A DNA stretch of 64,000 nt from a virus. How positions within the stretch are numbered: the first letter of the stretch is position 1; the number at the start of each line of letters is the position of its first letter. Below the pieces are notes generated by a model. That model was given only the letters and a program-made list of their open reading frames with translations, ran no database searches and was not told where the DNA came from. The position numbers and the translations under genes are program-made. Location of the stretch: positions 1 through 64,000 of IMG/VR virus record IMGVR_UViG_3300009085_000003; one strand, 5' to 3'. Below are positions 1,179-5,240 of this stretch, in pieces.

Positions 1179-1673
1179 CTACAGCAAGATTAGGCTCTTT
1201 ATGAAATCCGGGTCGGGCTTGATATGCTCCAAACTCCAGTTACGCTCTTTAAGCGCCTCGTAGAACAGAAACCATGGATTGAGAGACGCAGCCGCCCTGA
1301 GCTTGGCTCTGGCGTCCCGGTAGTTTGTCTGACGCTTACTGCCCTTCACCTCGACGCACACTATCATTCCGTTGTCCATGACATAAACAAAGTCTGGGGT
1401 ATACGAACCACCCGGCAGCTTGAACGTGAGCCACTCGTATAGCCGCGCCGAGACAGTGCGCCCGGTGGCGCCACTAATCAGCACAGCATCATACTGACGC
1501 CACTCATCCTCAACGGTCGAGCGAGACCGCAGGTAGAATTCCATCAACGTACGGTCGGCTGTGGATGGTGGCTTGCCGGATACCACATAGGCTTGTATGG
1601 CTTGGATAACTTCGCTGTCCAAACCATACTTCATTACTTTATCAACCGTGCTGAGTTGTTTTGCACGCGCCAT
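1179..1673 (-). CDS. PD-(D/E)xK endonuclease (DUF1064-like)
   Basis: YTPDF...VEVKG motif. Confidence 0.75.
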   Translation of the reverse strand: MARAKQLSTVDKVMKYGLDSEVIQAIQAYVVSGKPPSTADRTLMEFYLRSRSTVEDEWRQYDAVLISGATGRTVSARLYEWLTFKLPGGSYTPDFVYVMDNGMIVCVEVKGSKRQTNYRDARAKLRAAASLNPWFLFYEALKERNWSLEHIKPDPDFIKSLILL

Positions 1674-2668
1674 TACTCACCTCCAAATCGTAACCAGTGA
1701 ATCTCGTCACGCAGTATACCCGTCACCGATTCCGGGAGCACTATCTCAAAATTCACCAAAAGGCTAAAACATAACACGTGGCTCATCCACAACACATGTG
1801 GCTTGAAACTATCTGCCAGCTTGTGCCCGGTCTTGGCAGATGAGTCCCCAAAGAACTCTACAGTATCTGTAATGATTTTCTGGACACGCCGCGCATCGCC
1901 CGTCGAATCGGCAAGTTTATTAACCGCCAGTTGCAAGCGCTTGGCACGCTGGGCAATCACGTCGTTACTATACAGGCTTTCGTTCTCTTGGGCATTCATA
2001 ATCAGCTGCTCGAGCAACGCGACACCCACCTCCAAATATATCTCGGGCATCTTACGAATCACGTAGTCCTGCTTGACGCCCTGCTCGATGGAGGTCTTAA
2101 ACATGACCGATACATCTTCGCCACTCAATAGTGCGCCACGCTTAGTGTGCACGGCGCGATTCACCATGGTATTGTTAAGGCTGGCGACCACGATGTTGAG
2201 GTTTGCAAGGATTGCTGTGGGTGTTTGTTCTCCAAACCGGGATACCACGCCGTGCCCTAGGATACAGGACTCTGGGTACCCAGCCCGCCACACGGCACTC
2301 ATACCGCGACAAAAATCAGCAAGACGCTCGTACCCGCCCTCTGCTAGTTTGGCAACGTATAACGCCACCATCTTGTGCCGCGCAGACTCGAGGGCGCACA
2401 CACGCAGGTCAGACATAACATCATTGGTATTATATCGGGGATACTTGTCGCCCATGGCGTCCACCAGTTGCTTGGCGATAGCTGGCACATCAGAGTCTGG
2501 CTTAATGAACTCGACCTCAGCCATGTCGTTGACACGCTGGTGGTCGATGCGTTTCTCGCCATGCAGCATATTCAGGGCTTCGTCTTTGCTGTCTGCATAT
2601 ACCTTGGCGTAGAACACGCACGCTTTTTGCAAGATGTCTGGGGTGATATCCGTTCTCTGTTCTGACAT
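1673..2668 (-). CDS. hypothetical protein
   Basis: Long ORF; GGAGAGG RBS before ATG at 2668. Confidence 0.7.
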   Translation of the reverse strand: MSEQRTDITPDILQKACVFYAKVYADSKDEALNMLHGEKRIDHQRVNDMAEVEFIKPDSDVPAIAKQLVDAMGDKYPRYNTNDVMSDLRVCALESARHKMVALYVAKLAEGGYERLADFCRGMSAVWRAGYPESCILGHGVVSRFGEQTPTAILANLNIVVASLNNTMVNRAVHTKRGALLSGEDVSVMFKTSIEQGVKQDYVIRKMPEIYLEVGVALLEQLIMNAQENESLYSNDVIAQRAKRLQLAVNKLADSTGDARRVQKIITDTVEFFGDSSAKTGHKLADSFKPHVLWMSHVLCFSLLVNFEIVLPESVTGILRDEIHWLRFGGE

Positions 2669-2693
2669 TATCAATCCTCTCCACGAACTAGAT

Positions 2694-2829
2694 TTGCCGA
2701 GTCAGGATTTGAACCTGATTGCCTACCATTTCGTCCATCCACCTGCTTTCGCATTTGACGCTTCACGCTAGGTTGGTAGACCGAGAAGTGTCCTAACCTC
2801 CTCTGTGTGTTCCACCACACCGCCCGGCA
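2694..2829 (-). ncRNA. tRNA-like RNA with enlarged variable arm and non-canonical anticodon loop
   Basis: 7-bp acceptor stem TGCCGGG/CTCGGCA; D-like hairpin GTGTG-GTGGAA-CACAC; T-arm TCAGG-TTCAAAT-CCTGA; own promoter directly upstream. Confidence 0.7.
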
Positions 2830-2834
2830 TCATC

Positions 2835-2862
2835 ATTGTAGCACATTGGCAGGTTTTGTCAA
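2835..2862 (-). promoter_or_regulatory. sigma70-type promoter for the tRNA-like RNA
   Basis: TTGACA-16nt-TACAAT with TGn extension. Confidence 0.7.
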
Positions 2863-4184
2863 GCGCCTCTTTCGGGACTGGCAAGATAGAACTTTTGTTC
2901 TTTGAGCGCGTATTCCAAGCGCACCACTGTATCGATGGAGCCGATACGGTTTTTGCGTATCCACAGCTCGGTCTCCTTAACGTTTGAGGCTGAGTTGGAG
3001 GCTGAGGCTTCACTCAGGTCTGGGCGGTACAGCATCATCACGCAATCGGCTTTTTGTTCAATGTCACCAGACCACCGCAGGTCAGACAACACCGGGCGCC
3101 GGTCGCCCTCCTCAGCACCGCGGTTGAGTTGGTGCACGCACATCACATGCGCATTGTATTTTTTGGACAGGTTCCGCAAATACGTTACGACCGCTGCCAG
3201 CCACATCACTGGGCTATCGGATTTTTTGTCGTCCTCGTCGATTTCATCCAAGTGGTCGACCACAATGAAGTCCGGCTTGCACGCAGCCACCGCGTGGTGT
3301 ATCTCGGACAGCTTTCGGGACACACTATCCACAAACAGGGTGTTGGGGAATTGCTGAGCCAGTCGGGTGGACTCTTTGATAAGCAGGTCGTTTTGCAACT
3401 CCGAGGTTTTACCGGCAACCACGTCACGCCACTCGATACGCATGGAGCCCGCGGCTGTGCGTGCCCACAAGTCCTCGCCGCGCAGCTCGGTGCTGAAATA
3501 GATAGCCTTTTTACCCATCGACGCGACATACTGTGCCATCTGCCACGCCAGCGCCGTTTTGCCCACAGACGTTCTGGCAGCTAACACGCTCAGCTGGGTA
3601 CGCTGCAACAGCCCCAGCGCATTATCCAGCGTGCTCAGTCCAGTAGAGACACCATCCCAGCCCTGCTTGACGCTCGCGTTAAATTTGGCAACTATCGTGT
3701 CGATATTTTCAAACGACGGCTTGCCTTGGTTGGAGTCCTTGGATAGCGTCTTGCTCATGATATCGACCGCGCCCATCAGGTCTCTGGCGGACATAAACTT
3801 CATCGCGCCCTCAATGGCGGTCAGGAAATCAATCTCACGCCCGAGCGCTACCATCCGGTCAGCATAGTGGTCGATTCGTTTCAGGTCGGGGGTCTGGTTT
3901 ATCCAGTCAATAAATCCGGCGTCGTTCTGGATGGCGTCGAGAGCCACCATGGGGTCTTGAGATTCCAACAGCGCACGCCAGACCTTGCCAGCGGCAACGT
4001 CACAGAACGAATCCGGGGATACCCATGCATATTCACTCAGGGCAATCTTGGTGTCATGTCCAATGGACGCTGCCACAAACCGGCGCTCGACGTCGCGTTT
4101 TTCCTGCGTGGTCGCCCGGAGAACATCACCGGTGCGTATCTTGGGTTGTAAAGCGGGAGACTGATTTTCGGCTGTCATCACCAC
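2859..4184 (-). CDS. dnaB: DnaB-like replicative helicase
   Basis: AARTSVGKT Walker A, FSTE, VVDHL, HQLNR, LSDLRWSGDIEQKAD, KNRIG. Confidence 0.95.
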   Translation of the reverse strand: MVMTAENQSPALQPKIRTGDVLRATTQEKRDVERRFVAASIGHDTKIALSEYAWVSPDSFCDVAAGKVWRALLESQDPMVALDAIQNDAGFIDWINQTPDLKRIDHYADRMVALGREIDFLTAIEGAMKFMSARDLMGAVDIMSKTLSKDSNQGKPSFENIDTIVAKFNASVKQGWDGVSTGLSTLDNALGLLQRTQLSVLAARTSVGKTALAWQMAQYVASMGKKAIYFSTELRGEDLWARTAAGSMRIEWRDVVAGKTSELQNDLLIKESTRLAQQFPNTLFVDSVSRKLSEIHHAVAACKPDFIVVDHLDEIDEDDKKSDSPVMWLAAVVTYLRNLSKKYNAHVMCVHQLNRGAEEGDRRPVLSDLRWSGDIEQKADCVMMLYRPDLSEASASNSASNVKETELWIRKNRIGSIDTVVRLEYALKEQKFYLASPERGA

Positions 4185-5188
4185 ACCTCGTTTGCGGATT
4201 CTATTCCAAGGTCACCCTTACGCTTGGGTTTTGACTTGAGGCTGTAAGCCATGTTCGTGACGCTTTTGGGTGAGCCGATAGGCAGCTCGTCCTCGCGCAT
4301 TTTTTTGATAGCCCGCTCGATATCATCCGGCGTCAAGCCTATCGCAATCTGCTTACGAAATTCCTTGAGCCAAAAACCAAACTCGTCCCCGGTCGCCATT
4401 CGCCCGAACAGGGTGCAAAACCGCTGGGCAAGCACACGTACATCCTCTGGGAATTTACTGGCGTCGATAATTTTGACCTCGTGCTCTTGTGCGTTCCGGG
4501 CTATCCCGCGGTTCATCGCTTTGCGTGCGCTCTCCCTCCGAAGAATTGCAGGGTTGACCCCTTGTGGGTCATCTGTCGTAGTCTCTGTTAAGTTAACAGT
4601 ATCAGGTACTGTTAACGTTAACGGTACGCTAGAGGGAATTTCGGGTGTAGCATTGTCCGCTGGCGGACAGGGCGATGTATCGCCACAAACAGGGTCGTCC
4701 TGCCGAAAGACCATCTGTTGACCCTCCTCTGGTGGATTATCATCCGGGTCATTCAACGGAACCATAATGACCGGGGAGGCATGAACCACAGCCGGGCGAA
4801 ACGGTATGATGGGCTTGGAGACCACCGGTTTGTTTTTATCAATAAACAACTGCCAAAGCTCACCTAGCTTTTCGAGGTCTAGCTCATAATAGGTGGTCTG
4901 GTGCTCTCTCCACATCCCGACCGACAACTTAACGATACCCATATTTGCCAGAAGCTCTTTGGCTGCCCGGAGTCCATACCGGGACATACAGAGCTCGTCA
5001 CAGAACTCAGCATCCGATTTATAGATGCCCTCATTTGCCGCCCTCGGGTACCAGTATAGCAACTGCCCGAGCAACACCCCGGCGTCATAGGAGCCTGTGA
5101 ATTTGATGAATGCCTTGGAAACCATGAAGTAATTCCTGTCCCCCGAAACTTGCAGTAGCGTCGCCGCCAAAGAATTTGTTGACGTCAT
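4178..5188 (-). CDS. phage replication initiator (winged-helix N-terminus)
   Basis: LLGQLLYW...YKSDAEFCDELCMS wHTH, Pro-rich linker, directly upstream of DnaB. Confidence 0.75.
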   Translation of the reverse strand: MTSTNSLAATLLQVSGDRNYFMVSKAFIKFTGSYDAGVLLGQLLYWYPRAANEGIYKSDAEFCDELCMSRYGLRAAKELLANMGIVKLSVGMWREHQTTYYELDLEKLGELWQLFIDKNKPVVSKPIIPFRPAVVHASPVIMVPLNDPDDNPPEEGQQMVFRQDDPVCGDTSPCPPADNATPEIPSSVPLTLTVPDTVNLTETTTDDPQGVNPAILRRESARKAMNRGIARNAQEHEVKIIDASKFPEDVRVLAQRFCTLFGRMATGDEFGFWLKEFRKQIAIGLTPDDIERAIKKMREDELPIGSPKSVTNMAYSLKSKPKRKGDLGIESANEVW

Positions 5189-5240
5189 CGAGACCTCTCT
5201 CAAACTAGGATTCCCTCAAACCGAAAACAGGGTGACCACT

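Follow-up and report, generated by a model that had tools for sequence, protein, structure and literature searches.

Directly downstream of the replicative helicase gene of an uncultured phage, we found a 136-nt RNA element that has the frame of a tRNA together with a 61-nt arm in the variable position, and we consider it very probably a real, structured, tRNA-derived RNA gene. As to its role, our tentative preference is a tRNA-derived look-alike that would be processed by host tRNA enzymes and would engage tRNA-binding factors without routine decoding. The window, meaning the whole 64,000-nt stretch of DNA that was analysed, covers the opening 64 kb of an IMG/VR phage record that is complete at 79,569 bp (79.6 kb) and has direct terminal repeats, and the sequencing runs that contain the phage are freshwater-sediment metagenomes. 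The RNA belongs to a replication module on the minus strand, where the order is O-like initiator, DnaB-type helicase, tRNA-like RNA, ORF331 and a small endonuclease. Throughout, RNA position n equals 2830 minus the window coordinate.

Table 1. Features of the tRNA-like RNA, its promoter and the neighboring genes (window coordinates)
Feature	Coordinates	Strand	Details
O-like initiator	4181-5203	minus	
DnaB-type replicative helicase	2859-4184	minus	upstream of RNA; PF03796, E = 2.7e-48
Sigma-70 promoter	2835-2862	minus	-35 TTGACA 2862-2857; 16-nt spacer; TGn-extended -10 TACAAT 2840-2835; 11/12 matches, TG present
tRNA-like RNA	2694-2829	minus	136 nt
Acceptor 5' strand	2823-2829	minus	UGCCGGG, positions 1-7; pair probabilities 0.81-1.0
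D arm	2805-2820	minus	positions 10-25; GUGUG/CACAC, loop GUGGAA; pairs 10-14/21-25
Anticodon-type arm	2783-2803	minus	positions 27-47; 6-bp GAGGAG/CUUCUC, 9-nt loop GUUAGGACA; pairs 27-32/42-47
Variable-position arm	2721-2781	minus	positions 49-109, 61 nt; 8-bp basal stem, 4-bp second stem, 12-nt 3' bulge, 25-nt apical part
T arm and acceptor 3' strand	2695-2718	minus	UCAGG-UUCAAAU-CCUGA (112-128), T stem 112-116/124-128; CUCGGCA (129-135)
Spacer	2669-2693	minus	25 nt, with ORF331 ribosome-binding site GGAGAGGA (2682-2675)
ORF331	1673-2668	minus	331-aa all-helical orphan, presumably co-transcribed with the RNA
Small endonuclease gene	1182-1673	minus	

Fold of the RNA and its recognition as tRNA-like

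The minimum free energy (MFE) structure of the RNA is a cloverleaf of -50.1 kcal/mol (z = -3.2), and none of 200 dinucleotide shuffles was as stable (RNAfold). The modelled pairs are Watson-Crick or G.U in 35 of 35 cases with no mismatch, and pair probabilities in the core lie at 0.8-1.0. The initial annotation had described a 7-bp acceptor stem, a D-like hairpin and a canonical T-arm, and all of these are present on the minus strand, the acceptor stem being formed by positions 1-7 and 129-135 with one G.U pair. The annotated anticodon arm, GAGGAG/CTTCTC with a 9-nt loop, likewise proved to be the best pairing in its region, and the 3' end agrees with the remark that CCA is not encoded, since the discriminator A136 (A2694) is followed by AUC. 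Two small ORFs run over the RNA, one of 49 aa on the minus strand (2671-2820) and one of 45 aa on the plus strand (2634-2771); as both lack a ribosome-binding site, we regard them as spurious.

The whole variable region, from anticodon stem to T stem, spans positions 48-111 (64 nt), with the arm flanked by G48 and by A110 and A111. The basal stem of the arm pairs GUCUACCA with UGGUAGGC (49-56/102-109) and is extended by ACCU/AGGU (57-60/86-89), and the bulge GGAUGGACGAAA occupies the 12 nt from 90 to 101. The 5' strand of the arm has two 3' partners, either 102-109 (structure A, -50.1 kcal/mol, modelled probability ~0.74) or 90-97 (structure B, -49.1 kcal/mol, ~0.24), and it is possible on these models that the arm acts as a conformational switch. 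The apical 25 nt, including the GAAA hairpin, fold ambiguously, with a pair probability of 0.37 for 78-85 versus 0.62 for 69-79. The large closed variable region that had been annotated is present, with both stems and the GAAA hairpin, but its UGC-GAAA-GCA and ACCU/AGGU elements share A86 and compete for it, so that full formation of both is impossible. As further observations on the arm, the bulge GGAUGGACGAAA nearly repeats the 3' strand of the arm, its GGAC recurs in the anticodon loop, and C70-C73 with G95-G98 form a candidate 4-bp pseudoknot in the model.

Standard tools do not call the native RNA. ARAGORN made no call at default settings or when introns of 0-200 nt were allowed (-i), RF00005 had no match up to E = 10 in segments of 151 and 501 nt around the RNA, and a whole-genome scan with Rfam 15 gave no RF00005 match at the locus. 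No intron family was among the Rfam matches, no tmRNA (a tRNA-Ala-like domain plus tag frame) was found by default ARAGORN or Rfam, and the weak Rfam matches to icd-II, sR36 and NEAT1_2, all far under threshold, were discarded. These checks had been proposed along with the original claim that the RNA is tRNA-like, and their outcome fits that claim: the RNA scores neither as an ordinary tRNA nor as an intron-containing one.

The tRNA frame emerges when the long arm is shortened. We removed each interval i..j of the RNA in silico and reran ARAGORN at default thresholds, and a tRNA was called in 345 of 6552 variants. Nearly all of these (339/345) lose part of the long arm, and the restoring deletions are located in the variable region, starting at positions 45-49, with the anticodon read as AGG or as a 4-nt AGGA. 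The same procedure gave no calls in 40 random 166-nt genome segments, in 40 dinucleotide shuffles or in the two loci L010 and L101 considered below. In a descriptor scan that looked for a canonical T arm and a 7-bp acceptor within 260 nt and ran ARAGORN on the joined halves, the window RNA was the only locus recovered from both strands of 1.09 Mb of phage and metagenome DNA. Finally, a covariance model built from the window RNA alone (R1) detected 8/8 T4 tRNAs, T4 rnaC and 7/7 tRNAs of the E. coli metT operon, and in its alignments the basal part of the long arm fell on the variable arms of T4 tRNA-Ser, T4 tRNA-Leu and E. coli leuW. Together, these findings show that the tRNA frame is real and that the size of the variable region is the main reason tRNA detectors miss the RNA. 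Since tRNA-finding tools miss anything with a large insert, deleting candidate inserts and rerunning the finder alongside controls offers a way to recover such genes.

Within this frame, canonical and aberrant features are divided between the parts of the molecule. The 7-bp acceptor, the 5-bp T stem, a 7-nt T loop of the form U-U-C-R-A-N-Y and the G53-C61 pair are as in canonical tRNAs, and, as in class II tRNAs, a base-paired extra arm separates the anticodon stem from the T stem. The canonical anticodon loop of 7 nt with U33 and a purine at 37, on a 5-bp stem, is absent, and a 7-nt loop (UUAGGAC) can be drawn only with a G.A closing pair. The variable region of 64 nt lies outside the canonical 4-24 nt. 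U8, A14 and A21 are near-universal core nucleotides of tRNAs; here they are replaced by C8, G14 and C21, and the D-loop GG is present at RNA positions 17-18. The earlier suggestion of a non-decoding RNA is thus backed in part, in that the 9-nt loop, the 64-nt variable region and C8/G14/C21 would all speak against routine decoding.

The predicted isotype signals conflict among Leu, Pro and Gln. The loop UUAGG, the discriminator A and the class II layout point to Leu(UAG); ARAGORN reads Pro(AGG) once the arm is shortened; and a gammaproteobacterial tRNA-Gln(CTG) (L166:5359-5430) has the same T loop and the same acceptor, including U1-A72. The locus of that tRNA-Gln, in a metagenome-assembled genome of uncultured Gammaproteobacteria (L166:5359-5555), carries a partial duplicate ~50 nt after the gene. 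The duplicate consists of an anticodon arm, a 33-nt two-hairpin insert in the variable position, a T arm and the 3' strand of the acceptor, without a 5' half of its own, and it indicates that insertions in the variable position do arise in bacteria too.

Promoter and operon leader

The -35 box of the promoter overlaps the dnaB stop codon (2859-2861), and between its -10 box and RNA position 1 there are five nucleotides (gatga). Transcription usually starts 6-8 nt past the -10 box, and here the start would be expected at 2830-2827, which are the first bases of the acceptor stem. The earlier view that little or no 5' processing is needed fits this arrangement, in which a strong promoter stands directly ahead of the RNA with essentially no 5' leader. 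Between the RNA and ORF331, no terminator was found.

Two related phages, L082 and L083, share the gene order, with dnaB proteins 38-41% identical. Both have the orthologous promoter, likewise over the dnaB stop, with an invariant -35 box and an alignable spacer. The RNA is absent from both, and the promoter is followed by the next start codon after only 25-31 nt. Since the promoter is kept in these phages with such short leaders, the RNA is best described as a discrete insertion of ~136 nt into a conserved 5' leader, and the promoter belongs to the operon after dnaB and is not dedicated to the RNA. The annotation of the RNA as promoter-driven consequently holds as far as the near-consensus sigma-70 box 5 nt upstream is concerned, but the promoter is that of the operon and persists where the RNA is missing.

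The slot after dnaB holds an ORF of ~300-331 aa in all three phages, with no detectable similarity among the three, and it appears as a hypervariable gene slot within the replication module (window 1673-2668; L082:4545-5520; L083:3354-4324). ORF331 itself had no match in Pfam, PHROGs or PADLOC. Word-indexed and full phmmer searches of 1.8 billion representatives returned ORF331 itself and one weak repeat-like match, the ESM Atlas gave no usable match, and the AlphaFold model (pLDDT 39.6) was unusable. In the 79.6-kb genome we found no gene for Ro60/TROVE, RtcB, a CCA enzyme or an integrase.

Outside the window, the phage also carries two ordinary tRNAs, Met-CAT and Arg-TCT (genome 69703-69773 and 70721-70794), both without an encoded CCA. 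The tRNA-Met(CAT) has an A1.A72 mismatch and scores barely above the RF00005 threshold (29.4 bits versus 29). An extended -10 box, TGTGGTATACT, lies upstream of tRNA-Met, with a second copy downstream of tRNA-Arg. A separate observation concerns the 9-mer ATTGATAAT, which occurs in the whole genome in 23 copies on the minus (coding) strand and 2 on the plus strand, a strong strand polarity. Most copies are intragenic, and although the one at window 2667-2675 overlaps the start codon of ORF331, the 9-mer is not a start-codon motif.

Searches for relatives and variation within the population

We found no homologue of the RNA in any collection searched. By blastn, the phage GenBank set and E. coli genomes gave only 24-nt T-arm matches, one of which is the tRNA-Met of Agrobacterium phage Atu_ph07. 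Scans of IMG/VR returned no relative, and its sole 17-mer match (L165), without tRNA-like context, was set aside as chance. No relative was found in JGI metagenomes approached via dnaB relatives and synteny, in pattern scans of GTDB genomes, or with R1 over 174 loci, where no homologue was accepted. The weak R1 matches at L010:1766-1897 (E 0.47) and L101 (E 0.84) were rejected, as no deletion variant of either was called a tRNA, and R1 gave no match on the full record that contains L010.

Logan contigs from three further sediment samples cover the RNA in part; they show the presence of the locus only. The contigs of two samples are identical to the RNA over the covered parts. One contig, from a second sediment sample and of depth 2.2, has three differences, all inside the RNA. 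Two of these fall in stems, where U130 to C turns G6.U130 into G-C, and G108 to A turns U50.G108 into U-A. Since both are transitions, about half of which would keep pairing by chance, they lend weak support to the structure. The third, U118 to A, changes T-loop position 55, the universally conserved U55, and fits better with some relaxed constraint than with a strict tRNA mimic. Elsewhere in the module, a contig from another sediment sample shows eight differences in dnaB (window 3105-3156) spaced in multiples of three, which looks like third-codon-position variation in a co-occurring strain ~95% identical there.

Possible roles and comparison with known RNAs

The look-alike that we tentatively favour would work as follows. 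Host RNA polymerase would start at, or 1-2 nt from, the 5' end of the RNA, making an RNase P cut unnecessary, and the RNA would form the 5' part of the ORF331 mRNA. Host 3'-end enzymes (RNase Z, or RNase E and exonucleases) would then release it, and the host CCA-adding enzyme would complete its 3' end. Neither the tRNA-Met nor the tRNA-Arg of the phage has an encoded CCA, so that CCA addition to both must fall to the host, which could treat the window RNA likewise. These steps of transcription start, 3' processing and CCA addition are taken from general knowledge of bacterial tRNA maturation and would apply here by analogy. With an intact elbow of acceptor and T arm, the mature RNA should be accepted by tRNA-binding proteins, and with its 9-nt loop, C8/G14/C21 core and 64-nt variable region it would be a poor or null decoder. 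It may occupy a tRNA-binding factor or present a handle to one; candidates are a defence nuclease of the host that targets tRNAs and a partner for which the large arm would be the docking site.

Several findings argue for this reading. The acceptor and T arm are perfect, and it is the anticodon loop, the core and the arm that break tRNA rules. The intactness of every modelled pair argues against decay, the 345 called deletion variants stand against none in the 80 controls and none for L010 or L101, and the two stem variants in the depth-2.2 contig turn G.U into Watson-Crick pairs. Against it stand the failure to find a homologue in the searched collections and the variant at conserved U55. The genome search also turned up no gene for a CCA enzyme, RtcB or Ro60/TROVE, ORF331 is uninformative, and a specific target is not indicated.

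It is unlikely that the RNA is instead an unusual working tRNA that decodes and tolerates its large arm in the manner of class II arms. Such a tRNA would use U33-UAG-G37 (Leu, reading CUA) with two extra 3' nucleotides in the loop, or U33-AGG-A37 (Pro, reading CCU) with a G.A closing pair. The intact acceptor stem, T arm and D-loop GG, the arm at the class II site and the discriminator A are all compatible with decoding, as is the tRNA-Pro(AGG) call on short-arm variants. Within their codon families, CUA (7.9% of Leu) and CCU (10.5% of Pro) are the ones that the phage uses least, and one of its ordinary tRNAs reads the rare AGA codon. An A34 anticodon, however, is unusual in bacteria outside tRNA-Arg, and a 7-nt loop requires the G.A closing pair. 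C8, G14 and C21 disrupt the U8-A14-A21 core, the variable region is ~3x the class II maximum, and U1-A72 and the acceptor match a class I tRNA-Gln rather than tRNA-Leu, which puts the isotype signals in conflict. Phage tRNAs with altered anticodon loops are known to escape anticodon nucleases (PMC10264068), which we count in favour of a decoding role.

Of similarly low probability is a cis-acting leader or processing element, in which the tRNA-shaped 5' end would shield the mRNA from 5'-end-dependent decay or a signal resembling a t-element would set the 5' end of the ORF331 mRNA. The position suits such a role, as the RNA follows the operon promoter and precedes the ribosome-binding site without an intervening terminator, and its acceptor helix begins at the predicted start site without a single-stranded 5' tail. 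The t-elements of plant mitochondria are documented end-forming signals (PMC1920247). In an extended transcript of 200 nt, the cloverleaf persists in the MFE structure and does not take in the ribosome-binding site, but the folding energy is not unusual (z = -0.8). L082 and L083 manage with leaders of 25-31 nt, and a simple hairpin would suffice for this purpose, which leaves the full cloverleaf, the canonical T loop and the 61-nt arm as excess.

A functionless, drifting remnant of a captured tRNA gene with a variable-loop insertion is quite improbable. The RNA is a singleton with no relatives found, its core positions are non-canonical, one population variant affects U55, and the tRNA-Gln 3' duplicate in L166 has a 33-nt insert at the same position. 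On the other hand, a remnant is at odds with 35/35 intact pairs, 12 of them consecutive in the insert, with the identity of two sample contigs over their covered parts and with two stem variants that improve pairing, and 136 nt of junk within a leader is rarely kept by phage genomes. An integration (attP) remnant was rejected, as the genome has no integrase and the 5' half of the tRNA frame is complete. Last, a replication-origin transcript or primer element of the module is very improbable, since the location right after dnaB and the O-like initiator gene is offset by the lack of iterons or repeats in 2600-3000, by L082 and L083 sharing the module without the RNA, and by a tRNA frame left unaccounted for.

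Among known systems, class II tRNAs (tRNA-Leu, Ser and Tyr; RF00005) are alike in their cloverleaf with a paired extra arm, preceded by one unpaired nucleotide and followed by two, and the window RNA also has their canonical T loop and the GG of the D loop. It differs in a branched or bulged variable region of 64 nt, where class II normally has ~13-24, and in its 9-nt anticodon loop, its C8/G14/C21 core and the lack of an RF00005 match or native ARAGORN call. T4 rnaC (species 1, 139 nt) and rnaD (species 2, 119 nt) are likewise phage RNAs of ~120-140 nt whose function is unknown. There is no formal definition of such a family, and as working criteria for a phage RNA we took stability, processing, a length of 120-140 nt and a tRNA-like 3' domain; the window RNA is comparable to rnaC and rnaD in size and tRNA-likeness and would in addition have to be stable and processed to belong with them. 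In T4 rnaC, too, the T arm is canonical, the closing helix resembles an acceptor stem and a long hairpin lies immediately 5' of the T arm, and R1 matches rnaC at 16.8 bits. In our own folding of rnaC (L163:4909-5047), the variable-arm position of the MFE structure is taken up by a 10-bp hairpin, with a canonical T arm after it, and once 5-10 nt were deleted, ARAGORN read the 3' 87 nt of rnaC as tRNA-Leu(UAA)-like. Unlike the window RNA, rnaC and rnaD lie within a tRNA cluster and are excised from a multi-tRNA precursor, and rnaC has no recognisable D arm and anticodon arm in standard order; neither has sequence similarity to the window RNA.

Phage tRNAs act as weapons against bacterial defences that cleave tRNAs. 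The defence-evading phage tRNAs (PMC10264068, PMC11555353) resemble the window RNA in being tRNA-shaped, phage-encoded and off the host norm in the anticodon loop, and in that setting host nucleases attack tRNAs (PMC10264068, PMC11555353). They are otherwise canonical decoding tRNAs of normal length, whereas the window RNA has a 9-nt loop and a 61-nt insert. YrlA Y RNAs (RF02553) and the tRNA-like domain of tmRNA similarly combine a module of acceptor, T arm and D loop with a large extra domain, and both are non-decoding RNAs whose module is recognised by tRNA enzymes. In these the extra domain replaces the anticodon arm, whereas the window RNA keeps that arm and bears its insert in the variable position; neither an RF02553 match at the RNA nor a linked TROVE gene was found in the 79.6-kb genome.

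The window RNA thus meets the defining features of none of the compared families in full, and in the open-access literature we came across no account of any tRNA-like RNA from bacteria or phages whose variable region measures ~60 nt. Its singleton status limits the weight of the finding. As the locus demonstrates, a perfectly paired 61-nt module can be accommodated in the variable loop of a complete tRNA frame that stands behind a consensus promoter with no 5' leader. It is conceivable, though doubtful, that the RNA is an independent instance of a wider phage design, in which a tRNA frame would address host machinery and the arm, here with two near-isoenergetic pairings, would provide a module for docking or switching. 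Such an RNA would act in the conflict between phage and host, perhaps by soaking up or misdirecting a tRNA-targeting defence nuclease. If it is a functional mimic, it would represent an additional route by which phages exploit the host tRNA machinery and a natural tRNA scaffold that presents an RNA module.
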